The notes: generated from the letters alone by a model not told the origin. A stretch of 64,000 bases of DNA from Candidatus Omnitrophota bacterium (GCA_903901225.1 CAIUQE010000037.1:106580-170579); one strand, 5' to 3'. Positions 44,402 through 54,722 are shown, counted from the first letter of the stretch. Translations and numbers: made by a program.

Positions 44402-46105
44402 TTATTCAAGATTGCCGGCTGACAACGACCGCCTGGAACGCAAATAAAATGCCAGCCCGGCCAGAAAAAGCAACGATACCCAGGATAAAACACCCGCCAT
44501 CAGCCGCAACGGTGTTTGTCCCAGGAATATCTTCACGTCATGCTCCCCTGGTGGCACCTGAAAGAGGATCAAGCCCCAAGGGTTGTCATATACGATGGCG
44601 GTTTCTTTCTTGTCGACCGTGACCTTCCATCCCAAGAAATAAAACTGATGGAAGCAAAGGATAGACTGGGTTGCGGCATTCACATGAAACTCATGCCGCG
44701 ATGAGGACACTTGACGGGCACTCGTAATGACAGCCACCCCGCGGGCAACCTCATACCTTTGGTCCGGCGGCTTCAAAGGAACAGCCTTGACCCATACCGG
44801 CAAGAATCCCTTGCTGTCCATCGGACGGGTATTGTAAAGAAATTGCTGCGGGTCTTTAATATCGTACGATCTCATCGGATTGATAGGCGCTTCAAAGGGA
44901 ACGCTGACCACGATCAGGAACAATGACGCCGCCACGGCCAGCAACCATCTCAACCTGCCGTCGACCCATAAAACAAAACCTCCGGCGAGAAAAGATATGC
45001 AGAACGAAATGGCAACGAAGATGCGCCAGGGGAACTGGACATATTTCAATACCGGGATCGCGTCCCAGACAGGCAGTGCGCGATCGAGGGTCATGAACCC
45101 TAAAACTGCCGCGGCAAGCAACCAAAAGATCTGGATCCATGTCCGATTAATATCCACACGCCAGATCTTAAAGAACGCCAGGAAAGACGAGCCCACAAGA
45201 ATCAAATGAACCCATCCAAGCTGAAATGACGGCCCCATGCCCTGTCCCAGCGGCCCTGACTTCCACGGCGCGAAGATAAGATGGTACAGGGACATAAAAT
45301 GTTGATGATAATCCCCAAGCCCGCCATAAATGTTGCTGTTGGTAACATACTTCATCTCAAGATTGGCCGGAAGCCAGTAATAAGTGGTGATCCCCAAAGC
45401 ACAAGCCACCGCCAGCAAGACCCAGGCTAGCCCGGAACGTTGCGTTGGCCCAACGATAAAAAACAGGAAGAACGCGTACGCGATGGCCACGGGAAAGAAC
45501 AGGATCATCGTGATATTATGCGAAAGGATCAATCCCGTGACCGACAGCGCAAGGCCAATGAAAGCCGCGGCATTCAAGCGCGCGAAGACCCTGTTAATGT
45601 AAAAGATCACGAACGGCAGGAAAATATAGGCGAACATCTGCGCGAAAGCCGTGCGCCGGTAAATATCGCACAAATGGAACGGCGCGAAAATGAAGGCTAC
45701 CGCTGACAACAGCGCCCCGGGACGTCCGAAAAAATCGCGGGCGAGATAATACATCCCCACCCCGGAAAGAAAGAACGAAAGAACAATCGTCAAATTCGCC
45801 GCGAGAAGGAAGTCCCGGACAATGAAGAACAAGCCGGCGGCGACATAATAAAAAAGCGGCGGATAAAAATTGAACAGGGAATAACCGTAACCAAAGTTGA
45901 TGTCCGGCAGCCAGCGGGCGGCGAATTGGCCATCCTGCCAGACATGAACAAGCCCAATAAGCCTGAGCAGCCCCGCGTAAACATCTTCCGACCCGATCAC
46001 CTGCGAACCCAGAAAAGACTTCGCTGCCAGCAATGACAAGGCAAACAGCGTTGTCACGCAAACCAGGTCCTGGAACCATGCTTTTTTCAGCAAACCGGAA
46101 TTCAC
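44402..46105 (-). CDS. Polytopic membrane protein, GT-C-like (ArnT/PMT/YfhO-type glycosyltransferase superfamily) - tentative
   Basis: 567 aa; >10 TM segments with large loops, Trp/Tyr-rich; family assignment by architecture only. Confidence 0.35.
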   Translation of the reverse strand: MNSGLLKKAWFQDLVCVTTLFALSLLAAKSFLGSQVIGSEDVYAGLLRLIGLVHVWQDGQFAARWLPDINFGYGYSLFNFYPPLFYYVAAGLFFIVRDFLLAANLTIVLSFFLSGVGMYYLARDFFGRPGALLSAVAFIFAPFHLCDIYRRTAFAQMFAYIFLPFVIFYINRVFARLNAAAFIGLALSVTGLILSHNITMILFFPVAIAYAFFLFFIVGPTQRSGLAWVLLAVACALGITTYYWLPANLEMKYVTNSNIYGGLGDYHQHFMSLYHLIFAPWKSGPLGQGMGPSFQLGWVHLILVGSSFLAFFKIWRVDINRTWIQIFWLLAAAVLGFMTLDRALPVWDAIPVLKYVQFPWRIFVAISFCISFLAGGFVLWVDGRLRWLLAVAASLFLIVVSVPFEAPINPMRSYDIKDPQQFLYNTRPMDSKGFLPVWVKAVPLKPPDQRYEVARGVAVITSARQVSSSRHEFHVNAATQSILCFHQFYFLGWKVTVDKKETAIVYDNPWGLILFQVPPGEHDVKIFLGQTPLRLMAGVLSWVSLLFLAGLAFYLRSRRSLSAGNLE

Positions 46106-46180: not shown

Positions 46181-47485
46181 TTAAGAACTAAGAAGTTCAC
46201 CTTTTAACTGGTGCGGCGTGGCACGGGTAATGCGGACATTCACCATATTCCCTGCCTTGAACGCGCCCTGAGCGAGGGCCACGATCTTGTTGGCATCGTT
46301 GCGCCCATACGCGCCGCCATCGTTGATCTTCCCGGAGGATTCAACAAGGACTGCCTGGACCTTCCCCACCAGTTCCTTGTTCTTTTGCAAAGAAATGTCC
46401 GTCTGTAATTTGTTCAACCGGACGATCCGAGCTGTCTTTTTGGCTTCCGAAACGTCATCCTTCCACTTGAGCGCGGCTTCAGTCCGCGGACGCGGAGAAT
46501 ACTTGAAAATGAACGCCGAATCAAAACGCGCCTCTCGTGTCAGCTCAAATGTCTCCTCGAATTCGGCGTCTGTCTCCGTAGGAAACCCGACAATAATGTC
46601 CGTCGAAAGGGCCAACGACGGGCATGCCGCGCGCAGTTCTCCAACAAGCGACATGAACTCCCTCCCTGTATAATGACGCCGCATGAGTTCAAGGACACGA
46701 TCATTGCCGGCCTGCAAGGGCAAGTGGACCTGCTTGCAGACCTTCGGGTTAGTGGCCAGGACCTGAATAAGGTCTGCCGGGAAATCTTTGGGATGGGGCG
46801 AGGTAAAACGGATGCGTTCGATGCCTTTGACCGTTGAGACCTGGTCAAGAAGGCTGGCGAAGTCCACACCGTCCTGCCGGTAAGAATTGACATTCTGACC
46901 CAGGAGCGTCACCTGCTTGAATCCTTCATCCGCCAGTCGTCGGACCTCATCGATGATATTGCCCGCGGGCCGGCTGCGTTCCCTTCCCCGGGCGTGAGGG
47001 ACGATGCAAAAAGAACAGAAATTGTTGCACCCGCGCATCACCGCCACCCAGGCATTCACGCCTTCCGCGCGCGCCGGAGAGACATCCGCGTACGTCTCGC
47101 ATTCGGAAAGGGTCACGTCATAACCTGGACCATCCACGGCAGCCGCCAGTATCTCCGGCAAACGCTTGTAACTGTCGGGGCCGACGACAAAATCCAGCGC
47201 CAGATGTTTGTTCTCGATCAACTCCTGGCGCAGCCCCGTGGCCATGCAGCCCAGGATGCCGATCAAGGCCGGCTTGCCATTGCGGCGATGACGGAGATCA
47301 TGGATATGGCCGTAAACCTTGCGGTGGGCATTCTCGCGGACGGAGCACGTGTTGAGCATGATGATATCCGCATCGAGATCATCCTGGGTGAACACATATC
47401 CCGCCGCAGAAAGGATGGAACGAACGATCTCGGTGTCGTATTCGTTCATCTGACAGCCGAAACTGAGAAGGTAAATTTTTTGCAA
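46181..47485 (-). CDS. miaB: tRNA-2-methylthio-N6-dimethylallyladenosine synthase
   Basis: 434 aa; N-terminal Cys triad plus radical-SAM CNNFCSFC and TRAM domain. Confidence 0.93.
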   Translation of the reverse strand: MQKIYLLSFGCQMNEYDTEIVRSILSAAGYVFTQDDLDADIIMLNTCSVRENAHRKVYGHIHDLRHRRNGKPALIGILGCMATGLRQELIENKHLALDFVVGPDSYKRLPEILAAAVDGPGYDVTLSECETYADVSPARAEGVNAWVAVMRGCNNFCSFCIVPHARGRERSRPAGNIIDEVRRLADEGFKQVTLLGQNVNSYRQDGVDFASLLDQVSTVKGIERIRFTSPHPKDFPADLIQVLATNPKVCKQVHLPLQAGNDRVLELMRRHYTGREFMSLVGELRAACPSLALSTDIIVGFPTETDAEFEETFELTREARFDSAFIFKYSPRPRTEAALKWKDDVSEAKKTARIVRLNKLQTDISLQKNKELVGKVQAVLVESSGKINDGGAYGRNDANKIVALAQGAFKAGNMVNVRITRATPHQLKGELLSS

Positions 47486-47532: not shown

Positions 47533-48039
47533 TTATGACTTAAAGGCAGGAAAAACAAACACGTCAGGATCAGTATATTCATAAACTTTCTTTACGCGTC
47601 TTGAAGGATTCTCCGCATGCCCCTCCCCCTGCCGAACATCCATATCAATATAAGCCCTTCCATTCTTCAAGGACATCCTATTGATCTCGATTGCTCCCTC
47701 TAAACGACGGGATGCCTTGTGCACAAGCCTCTCTCCATCATTGATCAAGAAGTTAAGCACATAACAATAACCACTACCTCCGGAATTCTGTTCTGTTATA
47801 ACCGCAGCATCCTTCAATCCGTCGTCATTGAGATCGCCATAAATATACTTATTATAGTAAAAAACATTCAGAGGCAATGAGCGATAAGAAGAGTTGACAA
47901 GTGTTACGGACTCAACAGAACGCTCATCACCTATATAATAAGTCATATTCCCGAACAAGCGCGCTGCATTACGATTCTCTACCCCACAGCCGGCCAAAAA
48001 AACTATCAGAACCAAGAATAAGGTCGAGACTAATCGCAT
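47533..48039 (-). CDS. Lipoprotein, hypothetical (island gene)
   Basis: 168 aa; signal peptide + lipobox LAGC; AT-richer codon usage than flanking genes; 10-nt overlap with upstream SLT gene. Confidence 0.5.
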   Translation of the reverse strand: MRLVSTLFLVLIVFLAGCGVENRNAARLFGNMTYYIGDERSVESVTLVNSSYRSLPLNVFYYNKYIYGDLNDDGLKDAAVITEQNSGGSGYCYVLNFLINDGERLVHKASRRLEGAIEINRMSLKNGRAYIDMDVRQGEGHAENPSRRVKKVYEYTDPDVFVFPAFKS

Positions 48040-48737
48040 ATGAATACCGGGTGTTCATCAATCGTAACCCAATGCCCCTTTGAACAACGACCTTTGGGCT
48101 TGTTGATTTTCTTATTCTTTGCTCCCTTATCCACCAAAGATTTATCAGAAAATTCAGCTTCATTCTTAAAAACATCTTTAACATATTTACGTACTTGATC
48201 TGGATTATCCGCTTTAGCTTGCTCCAAAAACGCCTGAACATCATTCCAGCTTTTGGGATTCTTTTTAGCTTTTTGAGCCAATGCCTGCGCCTTCGCTATA
48301 GTTCCTTCGCCACCATTATAGGCCGCAAGGATAAACTTCTTTCGCTCTAATACATCCTTGACAGGTATTGTTTTTATTTTCGCTGATAAAATAGTTTCTT
48401 TAGAAAATGATCTGTCGAGATCGTCTATATACCGAGCTGCTGCAATGGATGCATAATCAATATCAAAACGCTGGTCATTCTTCTTAGAAACAATTAAATG
48501 ATAGCGTTCCGCCGTATCTCGTTGTAAATGAAAGTGTCCTGCGGCACCGTCCATGCCTCTATCTCTTTTTAATACCCCGAAACTGCTCTCCTGTCCATAG
48601 ATTGCTTCCAGCGTATTTACAGACAACGCATCATTCTTATCAAAATAACTCGATGCATTCTCAAGAGCCTTGCGTATATGTGAAGTTTCCCGTGCAAGCC
48701 AACCATCAACATCTGTTCTTCTTGGTTTTTTTGCCAT
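48030..48737 (-). CDS. Lytic transglycosylase (SLT domain) lacking a signal peptide
   Basis: 235 aa; SLT motifs EAIYGQESSFG, GHFHLQ, AAYNGGEG; N-terminus MAKKPRRTDVDGW is hydrophilic. Confidence 0.7.
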   Translation of the reverse strand: MAKKPRRTDVDGWLARETSHIRKALENASSYFDKNDALSVNTLEAIYGQESSFGVLKRDRGMDGAAGHFHLQRDTAERYHLIVSKKNDQRFDIDYASIAAARYIDDLDRSFSKETILSAKIKTIPVKDVLERKKFILAAYNGGEGTIAKAQALAQKAKKNPKSWNDVQAFLEQAKADNPDQVRKYVKDVFKNEAEFSDKSLVDKGAKNKKINKPKGRCSKGHWVTIDEHPVFICD

Positions 48738-48794
48738 AATCTTCTACCTCCTATCTGATCATTATCGCTTTTATGAATTGCGCAACCTGATCAA

Positions 48795-50120
48795 TCAAAG
48801 AACAACCCCATCATTTAACAAAAGCCATTTCCAGAGAGCAGTATAAATTATCTTTCTACCCTTGTGCTCTTCAATTGCTTCATAGTCATCAGTCAATATT
48901 ACCGCATCATCAATCTTCAGCTCATCCATAGCCTTAAGAAGGCTTTTCGTTTCCCGATTTCTAGTCTTTTCATCTGTCAGATTCCAACAAACTTGTATAA
49001 GCCCATTTGTTTTTGTACCATCTTTCAACACAAAATCAACTTCCCTATGCTGTTCATCTTTCCAGTAGTAGAGCTCAAGCTCGGGGTTAAGCACCTGTCT
49101 TTTCTTTAGAGCCAGAAAAACAATATTCTCAGCAAGCCTCCCTACATTTTCAGAAAAGCGAAATCCTACGGAGTTACATAACCCCGGGTCTATTGCGTAT
49201 ACTTTTCTTGGACTCTTTTCCTGCTCTTTTACTTTGAACGAGAAGCGTTTGACGAAGAATACAAGGTAGACATCCTCAAAATATCCGGCGAATTTCTCGA
49301 TAGTATCAGCCGATGCATGAAGGAACCGTTCCGTCGACATAAACGTAGTGAGATTCCCGACATTGCTCAAATAGTATTTTATGAGCGACTTCATGACCTG
49401 CGGTTTTCTCACACTGAATCGCTTAAAAAGGTCTTTTACAAGAAGGTCTTCAAAGTATTTCAGCAGTATTTCTCTCTTTTGCTCCGACAGGACAACTTCA
49501 GGAAAAGAGCCGAACTCCATATATCTGCGAAAAAGGCCTCGTATTTCGGCTTCCTTCCCGGCTATATCGAGATTGTCTGTAATCGTGATCTTGTTAAACG
49601 CCAAGAATTCAGTAAATGATAAAGGAAACACTGTAAGATCAAGATGTCTGCCCGTAAGAAGCGTGCCCAGTTCGCGGCTTAACAGTTTTGCATTTGAGCC
49701 GGAGACAACTATTTTTGCCTTCTTCAGCTCGTGCATCATGCGAACCCATTTCTCCCATCCTTCCACTTCCTGGACTTCATCAAAGAATATGTAAGGTATA
49801 CCTGTAGGTGAGAGAAATTCCTTATAGACATCAAATATCTGTGTCATGAGTTTTGCATCAAGCGTAGAAAATCTGGGATCTTCAAAATTAACGAGAAGAA
49901 TATTTTCTTTCTTTACGCCTTTCTCGGTAAGCTTCTTTGCCATCTGCCGCATAAGATATGACTTACCAGCACGTCTGGGGCCAGTTATCGTTATGACCTG
50001 ATTTGACGTTAAAAGGGCTTCCAGCCTGCCAAGATAGGCATCCCTGACGACACCGGTAGCCTGCTCCGTCCGCCAACTATTCCAGTCATTCAATACCGCT
50101 AAAATCTCATTTTTGTCCAT
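48795..50120 (-). CDS. AAA+ ATPase with C-terminal DUF4143-like domain (COG1373-type)
   Basis: 441 aa; Walker A GPRRAGKS, Walker B IFFDEVQ. Confidence 0.72.
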   Translation of the reverse strand: MDKNEILAVLNDWNSWRTEQATGVVRDAYLGRLEALLTSNQVITITGPRRAGKSYLMRQMAKKLTEKGVKKENILLVNFEDPRFSTLDAKLMTQIFDVYKEFLSPTGIPYIFFDEVQEVEGWEKWVRMMHELKKAKIVVSGSNAKLLSRELGTLLTGRHLDLTVFPLSFTEFLAFNKITITDNLDIAGKEAEIRGLFRRYMEFGSFPEVVLSEQKREILLKYFEDLLVKDLFKRFSVRKPQVMKSLIKYYLSNVGNLTTFMSTERFLHASADTIEKFAGYFEDVYLVFFVKRFSFKVKEQEKSPRKVYAIDPGLCNSVGFRFSENVGRLAENIVFLALKKRQVLNPELELYYWKDEQHREVDFVLKDGTKTNGLIQVCWNLTDEKTRNRETKSLLKAMDELKIDDAVILTDDYEAIEEHKGRKIIYTALWKWLLLNDGVVL

Positions 50121-50201: not shown

Positions 50202-50279
50202 ACAAGAAGGCAATAATAACAAGCTCATTATTTCTTTGCCAGCCCCTAAAGTTTTACTTAAAAACCACTTCAGAATTTT

Positions 50280-50345
50280 CTCAACCTCTGTCCTTTTTCG
50301 CATCCATCCGACATCCGAAGGTCAACAGGGCGACTTTTTTTGAAT
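50280..50345. repeat. Island repeat element, copy 1 (31-nt core identical to 52763-52793 followed by degenerate second half)
   Basis: ctcaacctctgtcctttttcgcatccatccg is 31/31 identical to copy 2. Confidence 0.75.
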
Positions 50346-50388
50346 TACTTGTCATTTCAGCCACTTACAGCTCCGTCCTTTACGAGAT

Positions 50389-51759
50389 TCATCTGACCTG
50401 AGATGAATGATTATGACTTTTTCCAATCTGTTTCGATCGATTCGCCAAATCAATACAGGAATACTGAGTCAACGGATCACTCTCTTGTATAGCTAAAATG
50501 GCCCAAGCGCCACCAACAGCACTCAAACTCCCGGTTGAAGGAGTTTTATTTTCATGTCCGATTTCAGCGTCAGACAAAGTTGCATACGGGAAAGCCAAAC
50601 CACTTGAATCCTCAGAAGCAGCCGCTAGCAATTGTTCCAATAATTGTTCTCTCTTGCTTCGATATATTTCAGCCTTTTTATTCTCACCCAACTGTTTATA
50701 ATCATGCGCCAGTCGGCCATAAGCATTGATCAATTGAAAGGTCCATTCAAAAGAAACCATCTGTAGACGTTTTAGTTCCCCTACTCGTTTTTTGTCAGTA
50801 AAATCAACCCCACGAATAATCATCGTCTTCCCTGCAAGAACAAAAGAACTTTCCGAGAGACAATTTTCTTCAACAAACGCAATCATTCTTTCTGCCGCAC
50901 CAGGTTCAATAAAATTTAATCCATCCACCCCCAGGGCAGAAATCCCCCAACTCTGTACGTCAGTAGCAACCATCTGATCCTTATAGCCACGATTAAACCG
51001 ATGCTCAGACTTGTTCCAGGCATTATTCTTAAGCCACTGCAAACAATTGGCAGCGGCAAGCTGATATGTGTTTTTCTTTGTTACCTGAAACAGTCTCTGA
51101 AATAACGCATAGCCATCAATGGAAACTTCTGTTGCATACACTCGATAAAATTCAGGCATTCCAAGATCGCACCCAATATATTGATCTTTCGAATAGGCAG
51201 GGTCTCCCTTTGGGCCTAACGCGATGCCTCCATAATTAGCATCTTTATTGTCTGAATTCTGCAGGGAAGCGGTGAAGTTCGCGATTTTCTCAGCCAGCTC
51301 TAAATATTTTTGTTCCTTTGTGCTCAGGTAAAGGTTTATAGCGGCAATTCCTATCCAAATATTAGCGCCACCACGAACTGACCAATCTTTTCCTAAGAAA
51401 GTTTTTCCGGCAACATAACACTCAATAATTCCTCCCAAACGCCAGATTTGAGGTGTATCAATATAATAATCCAATATTTTCTTGGCATCGGAATATTTAC
51501 CAACAGCTGAATACGCCAAGGCCACAACCGCCGCATCATACGTTATAGTCCAATGTTGGAATCGAGCATCCCCAACATGACTAAACGGAAGCCCGGTATC
51601 TTGGTCGCTGTTAGTTCTTAACCAATTAGAGAATTTATCGGCATAATTTTGGCTAATATCATTCGAATCTGGGACGGCACATACTGCGGAAGCGCTTAAA
51701 ACAACAAAAAGAAAACTGACGAAGAGAGTACGTGTAATAACGAAACAGTTCGTGTTCAT
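50389..51759 (-). CDS. Secreted protein with probable alpha/alpha-barrel glycoside-hydrolase-like fold
   Basis: 456 aa; signal peptide; recurring aromatic/Ala-rich helical hairpin pattern; family not resolvable. Confidence 0.35.
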   Translation of the reverse strand: MNTNCFVITRTLFVSFLFVVLSASAVCAVPDSNDISQNYADKFSNWLRTNSDQDTGLPFSHVGDARFQHWTITYDAAVVALAYSAVGKYSDAKKILDYYIDTPQIWRLGGIIECYVAGKTFLGKDWSVRGGANIWIGIAAINLYLSTKEQKYLELAEKIANFTASLQNSDNKDANYGGIALGPKGDPAYSKDQYIGCDLGMPEFYRVYATEVSIDGYALFQRLFQVTKKNTYQLAAANCLQWLKNNAWNKSEHRFNRGYKDQMVATDVQSWGISALGVDGLNFIEPGAAERMIAFVEENCLSESSFVLAGKTMIIRGVDFTDKKRVGELKRLQMVSFEWTFQLINAYGRLAHDYKQLGENKKAEIYRSKREQLLEQLLAAASEDSSGLAFPYATLSDAEIGHENKTPSTGSLSAVGGAWAILAIQESDPLTQYSCIDLANRSKQIGKSHNHSSQVR

Positions 51760-52640
51760 GCCCGGATCGCCCGTCCCTTGGCCGACTTGTCATTTTTCTC
51801 CAGCTTCTTTTTCTTCTCCGGCTCTAGAACGTAGTTTTCTTTTGTCGAGACCGGACGACCCAACTCACGCTCCGTCTCTTTCCTGGCATTGCCGGCCACT
51901 CGCCCGCCGCGCTTAGCCGCACCCTCAACTTGCTGATACCCCTGAGCATCTTCCTGCCGTGTAATCTCGGTTGAAACTCGTTCTCCCAGCATAGAAAAGA
52001 TCAGTTCCAAGTCATTCATGTGGTCGCGGAGATTTTCCTTATCCAGCCCTTTGAAATTCTTGTATTCGCTTGGCGTCATACCGAAAGTGGCTTTTGAAAT
52101 TTCTGCGGTCAAGATCGCATATTCCCGTTCCTCAGACACTCCCCGCTTCTTCCACTCATCCGTTAACTCATCCGTTAACTCATCCCTAACCGCAATACCG
52201 CGAACTCGCTTCTCAATCCAGCCCTCGGAATACCCCTTGGCCCGGTAAATATCCTTCATCCTCTTTTGAGCCAATTCAGGGTTGGCTATTTCCTGAACCC
52301 TATCATATCCAACCTCGGCCAACCACTGCTTGAAAGGCTCCGCTTTCTTTGATGGGATCGACTGAATAACTCGAAAGGCATTCTTGGTTGTAACGCAATC
52401 CGTCGCATAAGCCTTTCCGTCAGCAGCCAAAACTTTCAGTTGTCCGATTTTTTCGGACAACTGAAATCCTTCATCAATCAGCCGCTTCTTCAAGTCGGCC
52501 CAATACTTGCGCGCCCGTCCGGTTTCAGTCAATGCCTCAACAATATCAACGACAGAAAACCACCACTCGTCATTGGACCAAACCCGTCTTATCTTCTTGT
52601 TTTGAAACACCACAAGCGACTTGTCTTTGTCCATAAACAA
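51756..52640 (-). CDS. dinD: DinD-like (Bro-N domain) DNA-damage-inducible-type protein
   Basis: 294 aa; N-terminal KSLVVFQNKKIRRVWSNDEWWFSVVDIVEALT matches the Bro-N/DinD signature; contains in-frame 12-nt tandem repeat (ELTDELTDE). Confidence 0.68.
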   Translation of the reverse strand: MFMDKDKSLVVFQNKKIRRVWSNDEWWFSVVDIVEALTETGRARKYWADLKKRLIDEGFQLSEKIGQLKVLAADGKAYATDCVTTKNAFRVIQSIPSKKAEPFKQWLAEVGYDRVQEIANPELAQKRMKDIYRAKGYSEGWIEKRVRGIAVRDELTDELTDEWKKRGVSEEREYAILTAEISKATFGMTPSEYKNFKGLDKENLRDHMNDLELIFSMLGERVSTEITRQEDAQGYQQVEGAAKRGGRVAGNARKETERELGRPVSTKENYVLEPEKKKKLEKNDKSAKGRAIRA

Positions 52641-52750
52641 CCTGTATTTAATAAAGAGTTAATAAATTTATCTGGCAACTCACGCCAAGAGATTAATACC
52701 TCATATATTACCCTGTTTCAAACTTTATTGCCCTGCTTCCTAACAAACGC

Positions 52751-52830
52751 CTTCAAAATCCGCTCAACCTCTGTCCTTTTTCGCATCCATCCGTCAGCCA
52801 AAAGTTTGCAGATATACGTGTTTCATCCAG
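52751..52830. repeat. Island repeat element, copy 2 (full ~80 nt)
   Basis: cttcaaaatccgctcaacctctgtcctttttcgcatccatccg + tcagccaaaagtttgcagatatacgtgtttcatccag. Confidence 0.75.
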
Positions 52831-52903
52831 TACACCTTCCTGCAAAACTTTTAGCGCATCCCAAAGGTTGTGCCGAGCGCGAAGCGCGAGAAGCCACCGT
52901 GGG

Positions 52904-52936
52904 ACAGCCGAAAGTTTGAAGGTAAACTTTGTTCAT
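52904..52936. repeat. Island repeat element, partial copy (second half only) abutting the fic stop codon
   Basis: acagccgaaagtttgaaggtaaactttgttcat, containing the hairpin aaagttt-gaaggt-aaacttt. Confidence 0.6.
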
Positions 52937-52938
52937 AA

Positions 52939-53934
52939 TTAATTCAATTTATTGATCAAATTTGTCACCAATGCCGAAATGACGGCCTTCTCCTTTGGCT
53001 GGCTTTCAGCGATCAGAAGCGTGATGGCGACCAGCGCATTATCCGCAAGGCGTTTGCTGCCGTCAGGCCGATAAAGAATTTTATTCCGGTCCAGGAACCA
53101 AACAAACAGCGCCGCGGCGATACGCTTGTTACCATCTGAAAAAGCATGGTTTTTTACAACCAGATAAAGAAGGTTAGCCGCCTTCTCCTCAACGCTAGGA
53201 TACAAGTCTTTTCCGCCAAACGTCTGATAAATTGCCCCCAAAGCACTCTTGAAAGAGGCATCTTTTTCATTTCCAAACAACCCACTGGCTCCAAACTTCT
53301 TACGCATCTGCTCGATAACATTTATACCTTGCTCATAGGTCAACTGGTAGGACTCTTTAGCAGTCGCCGACTTGATCTTGGTTCGTCCATGGTCATAATC
53401 GTCCAGGATATCCAACCCGTACCTATAATCCCGGATGACCTCGAACAAGCCTTTAGCCTCATCACTCGTTAATGCTTTACGCTCACTCAAATCAGCCAAC
53501 ATCTTCACAGCCTGTTGCAATGTCTTTAAACTGGCCGTATGTTCCTTGAGCCGCTTTTCATTAATGGTATAACCCTGGATCAGATGTTGTTTCAAAACAT
53601 TCGTGGCCCAGATGCGGAATTGCGTCCCCCGCTTGGAATTAACACGATATCCAACGGAAATGATCATATCTAAATTATAAAAAGCTGTCTGATATGTCTT
53701 CCCATCTGCGGCAGTATGTGCAAAAAATGCACATACTGAATCCTCTTTAAGTTCTTTAGAATTCAGTATGTTACGAATATGCTTAGTCACAACGCTACGC
53801 TCAGTTAAAAATAAGTCTGCCATTTGGGCCTGCGTTAACCAAACAGTCTCATCCTTCAACTTAACCTCTAGAGATACTTTTGCCCCTTGAGGATGAAAAA
53901 CGATCAGATCAGTCTTTTTTACTTTATCTTCCAT
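52939..53934 (-). CDS. RhuM-family N-terminal domain fused to a Doc/Fic-family domain (Doc-like motif HAFSDGNKR)
   Basis: 331 aa; N-terminal LTQAQMADLFLTERSVVTKHIRNI (RhuM-like), C-terminal Fic/Doc motif HAFSDGNKRIAAALF. Confidence 0.72.
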   Translation of the reverse strand: MEDKVKKTDLIVFHPQGAKVSLEVKLKDETVWLTQAQMADLFLTERSVVTKHIRNILNSKELKEDSVCAFFAHTAADGKTYQTAFYNLDMIISVGYRVNSKRGTQFRIWATNVLKQHLIQGYTINEKRLKEHTASLKTLQQAVKMLADLSERKALTSDEAKGLFEVIRDYRYGLDILDDYDHGRTKIKSATAKESYQLTYEQGINVIEQMRKKFGASGLFGNEKDASFKSALGAIYQTFGGKDLYPSVEEKAANLLYLVVKNHAFSDGNKRIAAALFVWFLDRNKILYRPDGSKRLADNALVAITLLIAESQPKEKAVISALVTNLINKLN

Positions 53935-53940
53935 AAATCC

Positions 53941-54020
53941 TCTCCAAAATCCTCAATATCATCGTGCGTATCTTCTCCATACGGTCAGCAGAAAGTTTGC
54001 AGATAAACGCGTTTCATCCG
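53941..54020. repeat. Island repeat element, copy 3 (full ~80 nt) just upstream of the fic start
   Basis: Second half tcagcagaaagtttgcagataaacgcgtttcatccg nearly identical to copy 2; contains palindrome aaacgcgttt. Confidence 0.75.
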
Positions 54021-54137: not shown

Positions 54138-54722
54138 TTATGATAAAAGCCGGTGCCGCCAGCATGTCGTCAGGTGATCGTTGACCAGGCCGGTCGCCTG
54201 CATGTGGGCATAAATGATCGTGGAACCGACGAACGACATGCCGCGTTTCTTCAGGTCCTTTGACAACGCATCGCTTTGCAGGCTGGTTACGGGGATGTCT
54301 TTAAACGTCCGGCAACGGTTGACGATCGGCTTTCCACCTACAAAAGACCAGACATACGCGTCAAAACTCCCAAACTCCTGCTGTATCGCCAGGAACACAA
54401 GGGCGTTGCGGCGCGCCGCGAAGATCTTGAGTCTGTTGCGGATAATCCCGGGATCAAGCATCAACTTTTCAAGCTCTCCATCCGTCATGCACGCCACCTT
54501 CAGAGGATCAAAACCATGGAATGCTTTACGATAACCATCCCTTCGGCACAAAATCGTGTACCAACTCAAGCCAGCCTGCGCGCCCTCAAGGATCAGGAAC
54601 TCAAAATGAATCCGGTCATCACGGACAGGCACGCCCCATTCAGTATCGTGATAACGCTGGTAAACCGGCTTGTCCATCCCCGCCCAGGGGCAACGGATCC
54701 TGTCTTTTAATTTCTTAACCAT
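54138..54722 (-). CDS. tag: DNA-3-methyladenine glycosylase I
   Basis: 194 aa; RCPWAGMD ... YQRYHDTEWG zinc-binding Tag signature. Confidence 0.92.
   Translation of the reverse strand: MVKKLKDRIRCPWAGMDKPVYQRYHDTEWGVPVRDDRIHFEFLILEGAQAGLSWYTILCRRDGYRKAFHGFDPLKVACMTDGELEKLMLDPGIIRNRLKIFAARRNALVFLAIQQEFGSFDAYVWSFVGGKPIVNRCRTFKDIPVTSLQSDALSKDLKKRGMSFVGSTIIYAHMQATGLVNDHLTTCWRHRLLS

Follow-up and report, generated by a model that had tools for sequence, protein, structure and literature searches.

Several described systems resemble parts of the locus treated here. In staphylococcal cassette chromosome (SCC) elements, the Ccr serine recombinase catalyzes insertion at the end of rlmH, and tandem units with repeats of the integration site occur, some of which lack ccr (PMC3900703). 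Islands and prophages at dusA use tyrosine integrases and replace the 5′ end of this tRNA-modification gene, the old 5′ end being found at the distal border; in Polaromonas, a MiaB-like (rimO) gene rarely serves as the target (Farrugia et al. 2015, PMC4482086). In mycobacteriophages, the attachment site attP lies inside the open reading frame (ORF) of the repressor, so that the C-terminus of the protein depends on whether the phage is integrated or free (PMC4557955). In this report, we analyze a family of ~80-nt direct repeats located between tag and miaB, the latter encoding a radical-SAM methylthiotransferase, in a 64,000-nt stretch of DNA from a Candidatus Omnitrophota bacterium (GCA_903901225.1, CAIUQE010000037.1:106580-170579). 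The whole stretch is designated the window, and coordinates refer to it unless a contig is named. The repeats are very probably attachment-site junctions of integrative elements which encode a large serine recombinase (LSR) and target the first miaB codons in Candidatus Omnitrophota. In all likelihood they are attL-like, each joining a former miaB start to the end of a gene for a serine recombinase.

The closest architecture is that of SCC composite islands, and the array is best described as SCC-like and partly integron-like. Features shared with SCC/SCCmec (CcrAB/CcrC) are insertion, here presumably also by a large serine recombinase, at one end of a conserved RNA-modification gene that is not destroyed and the tandem arrangement of elements with direct repeats of the integration site, including recombinase-less units (pseudo-SCC), which is found here as well. 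SCC elements, however, insert at the 3′ end of rlmH/orfX, whereas here the 5′ end of miaB is used and its N-terminal codons are replaced; their repeats measure 15-18 nt instead of ~80-110 nt, the units described here go down to single genes of ~1 kb in an Omnitrophota host, and attP is predicted to lie inside the recombinase ORF, so that integration would swap the recombinase C-terminus. The LSR of relatives gives its best NCBIfam matches with CcrB and CcrC, but the score for SCCmet_CcrB (222 bits) is far below the cut-off of 900, and the enzyme is thus not a Ccr orthologue. As in the dusA islands, a gene's 5′ end has been replaced, and the displaced miaB start (copy c3, see below) is present next to tag. 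The dusA islands differ in having a tyrosine integrase beside the junction, whereas a serine recombinase is found in relatives of the window and none in the window itself, and tandem multi-cassette arrays with recombinase-less units are not a described feature there. Integrons likewise gather co-oriented, compact, often single-gene cassettes with toxin or defence functions at one site, with a recombination site bounding each cassette and an order that varies between relatives, but the locus is devoid of IntI, attC hairpins and attI, its sites are double-stranded coding-sequence mimics of the target, and a promoter-like site of its own (50201-50173) is present in at least one cassette. In the mycobacteriophage case, it is the repressor that is shortened by a tyrosine integrase, whereas here the recombinase's own 3′ end is predicted to cross attP. 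No literature linking miaB, serine recombinases and Omnitrophota was found.

All genes between 46 and 57 kb are encoded on the minus strand, and each repeat, read on this strand, is composed of a left arm, a GG[CT]TG core and a right arm. The copies, designated c3, 'part', c2 and c1, together with the live miaB start, are given below in the direction from tag to miaB (asterisks indicate stop codons).

53924..54017, minus strand, c3, attL-like junction at the far end of the array; left arm 54017-53991 (MKRVYLQTFC*), core TGCTG 53990-53986, right arm starting with ACCGTATGGAGAAGATACGCACG, +1-frame tail ADRMEKIRTMILRILERIYGR*, stop codon 53926-53924
52830..52936, minus strand, 'part'; left arm 52936-52910 with the sequence ATGAACAAAGTTTACCTTCAAACTTTCGGCTG (MNKVYLQTFGC), core GGCTG 52909-52905, right arm of a different type, +1 frame AVPRWLLALRARHNLWDALKVLQEGVLD
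52718..52826, minus strand, c2; left arm 52826-52800 (MKHVYLQTFG*), core GGCTG 52799-52795, +1-frame tail of the right arm ADGWMRKRTEVERILKAFVRKQGNKV*, stop codon 52720-52718
50250..50345, minus strand, c1; left arm 50343-50317 (KKVALLTFGC) without start codon, core GGATG 50316-50312, right arm from 50311, +1 frame DVGWMRKRTEVEKILKWF...
47400..47485, minus strand, live miaB copy, attR-like; left arm 47485-47459, core GGCTG 47458-47454, followed by genuine miaB codons

The left arms align with the real miaB 5′ end and match native MiaB N-termini of other Omnitrophota (MKRIFLQTFGC, MNKVFLQTFGC, and NSKKVALLTYGC), and the target core corresponds to the Gly-Cys codons of the conserved FGCQMN motif. 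Beyond these codons, the likeness to miaB ends: the right arms show 23-35% ungapped identity to miaB but contain an open +1 frame, and every junction changes from one arm to the other within the same few bases. In our interpretation, each junction combines one half-site from the host with one from the element, the two meeting at a short core common to both. In the live copy, the +1 frame reads ...FSVSAVR*, an ending typical of integrated recombinases. Decayed miaB pseudogenes with apparent frameshifts were also considered and were rejected in view of the right arms, whose recombinase frame is open and whose sequence is conserved between genomes. A local duplication of the miaB 5′ region, or a RecA-dependent Campbell insertion of circles carrying miaB fragments, would explain the miaB homology common to all copies but is very improbable, since the right arms are not derived from miaB and are conserved between genomes as LSR-tail sequence, since the switch point is the same throughout, and since an LSR gene occupies exactly this site in relatives. 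Moreover, homologies of ~30 nt at 50-75% identity are too short and too divergent for RecA-mediated recombination.

A repeat search of the window returned two families, A (52793-52828, 52903-52938 with 72% and 53984-54019 with 89% identity) and B (50254-50322 and 52737-52805, 81% identity over 69 nt). The 30-mer GGATGGATGCGAAAAAGGACAGAGGTTGAG is present in identical copies at 50280-50309 and 52763-52792 and nowhere else in the 64 kb at up to three mismatches (0 expected from 100 shuffles), and the core 20-mer TAYCTGCAAACTTTYGGCTG has three matches in the window versus 0.05 expected. These data bear out the ~80-nt repeats that had been reported in a first-pass annotation of the same DNA. Its statement that the gene for the RhuM-Fic/DOC protein is bracketed by repeats holds as well, c3 overlapping the ATG and the next copy starting 2 nt after the stop codon. 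With all genes on the minus strand, what it called the 'first half' corresponds to the 3′ half when read in the direction of the genes. The copy at 52904-52936, which it had described as partial, is actually a full junction (52936-~52830) that has a different right arm and continues into c2, and the fifth, functional copy at the real miaB start (47485-47400) had been missed. The latter was recovered with an nhmmer profile of the other copies. Pseudo-miaB starts in general were searched for with an nhmmer profile and a peptide-pattern scan; a blastn-short comparison of each miaB 5′ end with the DNA upstream of the same gene lacked sensitivity and barely recovered the copies of the window.

The five copies delimit four segments, of which the first contains the Fic gene, the second is empty, the third contains the genes for a Bro-N and a secreted protein, and the fourth those for an ATPase, an SLT protein and a lipoprotein. 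The empty segment results from 'part' running directly into c2 without a gene in between, the pair of junctions spanning 52936-52800. Every repeat match in the window falls at 47.4-54.0 kb; dispersal in the manner of a repetitive extragenic palindrome (REP), whose ubiquity the first-pass annotation would have counted against its own proposal, or of a miniature inverted-repeat transposable element (MITE) was not observed within the 64 kb, the copies being confined to the miaB locus. Matches of the right-arm 19-mer GATGGATGCGAAANAGGAC in JGI metagenome contigs (23) and IMG/VR (1) were all due to chance and without miaB context. The organism comes from ENA metagenomes, and several assemblies break at the repeats.

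Two functions other than recombination had been suggested for the repeats. Co-regulation of the island genes by a shared promoter, operator or leader would fit the position of each copy upstream of a gene on the coding strand, and the original miaB promoter may still precede the distal copy, in which a miaB-like start codon is retained. We nevertheless regard this function as highly unlikely. Promoter-like sites are not enriched (18 versus 12.9 ± 3.3 in shuffles), the highest-ranking one (50201-50173) is found not in a repeat but just upstream of the ATPase gene, one copy is directly followed by another with no gene in between, and the conserved parts are miaB and LSR coding sequence rather than hexamers or operator palindromes. 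The short palindromes noted earlier are present but derive from the K-V-Y-L-Q-T-F codons and are not conserved between the copies. The probability of integron-type attC sites or a small structured RNA is smaller still. The layout is indeed cassette-like, with co-oriented and mostly single-gene units of the toxin/defence type, but the z-scores for folding of either strand lie between -1.6 and +1.0, no Rfam match was obtained in the repeats, the Pfam lists contain no tyrosine integrase (Phage_integrase family) within ±10 kb, and the sequence is accounted for by two coding regions. The third suggestion, recombination sites that delimit cassettes without a canonical integron, was essentially right, although neither the composition of the repeat from a miaB 5′ part and an LSR 3′ part nor the termination of the array at the live miaB start had been seen. 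An XerCD/dif-type module (no dif-like core) and Tn7-like targeting (no transposition genes) were rejected, a serine recombinase occupying the site in relatives in both cases.

The two arms of the junctions are inherited independently, as is evident when arm identities are determined for junctions anchored on the GG[CT]TG core and the arrays of two relatives, L095 (MiaB 86% identical to that of the window) and L127 (73%), are included. Copies c2 and c3 share 89% identity in the left arms and 50% in the right arms, whereas the right arms are 85% identical between c1 and c2 and 94% identical between c2 and junction L127-Jc, the left arms being unrelated. The right arm of L127-Jc is also 88% identical to that of c1. 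Conversely, L095-J and L127-Jc have left arms with 100% identity and right arms with 42%, and they also share the upstream remnant of a class-D beta-lactamase-like gene. We take this independent assortment to be the signature of site-specific exchange at the core.

A recombinase gene is found at exactly this position in relatives. In L123 (GCA_002753465.1, MiaB 73% identical to that of the window), a 553-aa protein with Resolvase, Recombinase and Zn_ribbon_recom domains is encoded directly upstream of miaB (L123:8343-10004), with phage-like genes ahead of it. The recombinase gene and miaB overlap in the +1 frame, the last ~12 codons of the former coinciding with the first codons of the latter, and the recombinase ORF ends at the TGA contained in CAG-ATG-A(A), the Gln-Met-Asn codons of miaB. 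The same arrangement is present in L209 (4523-6184), whose recombinase is 88% identical, and the elements found at miaB in relatives contain Phage_rep_O, HTH_17 and PDDEXK genes. As the LSR stop codon lies inside the Cys-Gln-Met-Asn codons of miaB, integrated copies are expected to end with [AV][KR]*, which was the case for 93 of the best 120 LSR homologues, most of them from Omnitrophota. The remaining 27 possess tails of 20-27 residues, e.g., LSAGRMAKFRTMILKVLKMVSDCDI and PTDGRWLRYRGTMEKIAEAIIKWE; a conserved pattern of the type GRW.RYR.TME.IAEAL was noticed in these tails. When the 27 tail-bearing C-termini were compared with the window by tblastn, the two best matches were located on the right arm of c3 (P0141 and P0236; 60-65% identity over 20 residues; E 6e-4 and 2e-3). 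A physical junction of this kind is formed by the 3′ tail of the LSR gene in L125 (1994-3685; KKVYIRTFG* / ADRWCKYRVMILMILEKLTDCK*); two recombinase-less Fic cassettes with a second junction between them come next, and then miaB. An IMG/VR contig with a small-terminase gene contains an LSR gene in the tail state (L130:5983-7728) with the embedded sequence PRVLLRTFGCKM, an arrangement that looks like the one expected for attP; this recombinase was detected by an alignment-based search, a single-protein query with the L123 enzyme giving nothing.

These observations are best explained by the following course of events, in which integration would be catalyzed by the LSR. In the free element, the last ~12 LSR codons preceding the core would overlap, in the +1 frame, a miaB-like 5′ end (P arm), and the LSR ORF would run across the core into a tail of ~20-27 codons (P′ arm). 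Integration at the Gly-Cys codons would place the P arm before miaB, where it would provide a new MiaB N-terminus, and the old miaB start would be carried to the far end of the insert and become fused to the P′ tail. Because attP mimics the N-terminal codons of its target, the target gene would stay intact. As the new junction still resembles a miaB start, it could serve as the next target, and a co-oriented tandem array would grow on its miaB-proximal side by sequential insertions, with read-through transcription of cargo and miaB being possible. The position of attP inside the LSR ORF means that integration would also exchange the last ~25 residues of the enzyme. Hypothetically, this swap could be regulatory and act as a built-in sensor of the integrated versus the free state. 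The puzzling repeat family would thereby be explained as the record of repeated site-specific insertions, and the first miaB codons as the dedicated landing site of a large and hitherto undescribed serine-recombinase clade from a phylum without cultured members.

Extra pseudo-miaB starts were found in five Omnitrophota-type arrays (the window, L095, L010, L125, and L127) and in none of ~75 miaB loci of other phyla. L095 has the same tag and miaB flanks as the window with different cargo, and the present N-terminus of the window's miaB (QKKIYLLSFG) occurs there as a displaced pseudo-copy before a different cassette, which we regard as direct evidence for 5′-end replacement. In L010, a single junction precedes the genes for a HigB/HigA-like pair and a small secreted protein. 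In L127, the order is Fic, DUF4279, two small ORFs, DUF4143 ATPase, Bro-N, and miaB; the Fic, ATPase and Bro-N families are thus shared with the window, with the order of ATPase and Bro-N swapped. Permutation of cassettes between strains had been named as something to look for in the first-pass annotation, which would also have given up its proposal if relatives with the same genes lacked the repeat; such relatives carry junctions too, as L127 demonstrates. The Fic genes of the window and L127 (60-1061) share 83% nucleotide identity, compared with 70% for miaB, and the Bro-N gene and its upstream junction are homologous to L127 4800-5729.

Further observations concern the contents of these arrays. 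A degraded gene resembling class-D beta-lactamases or penicillin-binding proteins is present at L095:5838-6440 and L127:4640-4790, KTG and FWL motifs being recognizable by eye; its 3′ end and the next left arm are nearly identical in the two arrays, and the tail of the L095 junction appears to have been co-opted as start or signal peptide of the beta-lactamase-like ORF. An ISL3-family transposase fragment and a GDSL lipase gene lie between tag and the first junction of L095 (L095:4077-4610), showing that the interval between tag and miaB also collects unrelated insertions.

The segments delimited by the junctions in the window contain the following genes, which together with the junctions are arranged in the order tag, c3, RhuM-Fic/DOC, 'part', c2, Bro-N, 456-aa secreted protein, c1, ATPase, SLT, 168-aa ORF, and miaB.

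54138..54722, minus strand, tag, DNA-3-methyladenine glycosylase I (Pfam), conserved upstream flank
52939..53934, minus strand, RhuM-Fic/DOC protein, single-gene cassette (PADLOC PDC-S23, 7e-136)
51756..52640, minus strand, Bro-N protein (PADLOC PDC-S13, 2e-114)
50389..51759, minus strand, 456-aa secreted protein with a weak GH76-like match, overlapping the Bro-N gene
48795..50120, minus strand, AAA_14/DUF4143 ATPase (PADLOC PDC-S01, 5e-120)
48030..48737, minus strand, SLT lytic transglycosylase (Pfam)
47533..48039, minus strand, 168-aa secreted or lipoprotein-like ORF
46181..47485, minus strand, miaB, radical-SAM methylthiotransferase (Pfam UPF0004, Radical_SAM, and TRAM)

The PADLOC matches refer to candidate single-gene phage-defence families. 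The Bro-N cassette comprises 50389..52640 and the miaB-proximal cassette 47533..50120. The G+C content is 39-47% at 47.5-54.1 kb and 50-58% on both flanks, the low-G+C island of 6.6 kb extending exactly from the miaB start to the tag stop codon. The Fic cassette has no spare DNA, its ATG overlapping the c3 tail and its stop codon lying 2 nt before the next left arm, and the spacing from junction to junction is 1081 nt. The RhuM-Fic protein is 70-91% identical across many Omnitrophota and more conserved than MiaB.

Several points weigh against the interpretation of the repeats as LSR junctions or against a simple form of it. The tail matches of c1 and c2 are weak at the protein level (E 0.08-0.2, for c1 with the LSR tail P0184), the right arm of 'part' is assigned by position and pattern only, and the crossover is located no finer than to a few bases around GG[CT]TG. 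Neither tblastn nor the Pfam annotation of the neighbours revealed an LSR gene or remnant in the window, so nothing here is able to move the cassettes in cis at present, and tblastn detected none in the L095, L010 and L127 arrays. The L123 and L209 sequences stop before the distal end of the LSR element is reached, no junction was found in L126 between the pilus genes and the element, and L130 could represent an integrated or tandem state instead of a free attP. As to the cassettes, Fic lies behind a different sequence in L127, and homologous cargo is not always accompanied by the same right arm; because this pairing varies, the units are not perfectly fixed cassettes. A circular cassette, an empty site or an excision product was not observed, and all contigs with identical Fic, Tag or MiaB proteins share one arrangement.

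How the recombinase-less segments arose is the part of the LSR interpretation for which two courses have to be weighed. Full-size LSR prophages or islands could have been integrated successively, each losing its recombinase and most of its genes in situ, and the segments would then never have been mobile as small cassettes. We consider this sequence of deletions a substantial possibility, though short of probable. It agrees with the occurrence, in relatives, of complete elements at this site that include phage-like genes (the Phage_rep_O, HTH_17 and PDDEXK genes mentioned above), with the frequency of SLT and Bro-N genes in prophages, with the incomplete co-inheritance of cargo and right arm, and with the invariant arrangement across samples. 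It agrees less well with the total lack of LSR fragments in ~10 recombinase-less segments of four genomes, with the exact boundaries, the Fic ORF of the window filling the space from tail stop to next left arm and its stop codon abutting the next miaB-like ATG, the latter as in L125 and L127, with the 'empty' junction pair (52936-52800), with the different cassette order between species, and with the identical left arm and upstream remnant that L095 and L127 share in front of unrelated right arms. Alternatively, the recombinase-less cassettes may have been mobilized in trans, to which we tentatively assign almost an even chance. The 1081-nt Fic unit without spare DNA and the same abutment of stop codon and ATG in L125 and L127 favour such mobilization, as do the empty junction pair, the lack of LSR fragments in the segments and the permuted order. 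The failure to observe circular or empty-site forms, the invariance of the array in this population and the position of homologous cargo behind different right arms speak against it.

A broader proposal, an integron-like gene-capture platform run by an LSR in Omnitrophota, is possible although we would not call it probable. In such a platform, minimal circles would consist of one cargo gene and a ~110-bp attP that mimics the miaB start, the cargo being Fic/DOC, Bro-N, a DUF4143 ATPase or a toxin-antitoxin pair, i.e., mostly PADLOC candidate defence genes. An LSR acting in trans would insert these circles at the miaB 5′ end, where they could be stacked, reshuffled and co-transcribed with miaB. 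Single-gene cassettes that carry candidate anti-phage functions (PDC-S01, PDC-S13, and PDC-S23) but no recombinase are found stacked in tandem, with an order that varies between species. If mobilization in trans holds true, the system would be a serine-recombinase analogue of the integron and would supply natural attP/attB pairs whose target is conserved and well defined. Together with this stacking and with the mimicry of the target's N-terminal codons, an attP spanned by the recombinase's own 3′ end would be of interest to those working on mobile elements and on recombinases as tools.

Strain variation was noticed in the miaB-proximal cassette. Two short contigs from other samples (L005:1-60 and L006:1-50) have the identical miaB start and diverge ~85 nt upstream, within the 3′ end of the 168-aa ORF (window 47540-47600), which suggests variation that does not coincide with the att core.

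The miaB gene of the window starts with TTG and encodes the N-terminus MQKIYLLSFGCQMNEYD; its Omnitrophota homologues are named MiaB. Gene callers often place the start at the internal methionine of MNEYD (422-aa form), and the same applies to ~12 of the 120 listed homologues. MiaB annotations in Omnitrophota are thus often truncated, probably as a consequence of element-derived N-termini with TTG or GTG starts or of the overlap with the recombinase ORF.

Downstream of miaB, a 567-aa PTPS_related gene (44402-46105) lies between miaB and nadA, and it is absent from this position in L095, L123, L124 and L209. The region shows an unusually strong AT skew of up to 0.48, and the gene may represent a second, unrelated insertion. 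Finally, a hairpin with a perfect 14-bp stem (TTTCAGTTGTCCGAAAAAATCGGACAACTGAAA, 52434-52466, minus strand), flagged as terminator-like, is located inside the Bro-N coding region.

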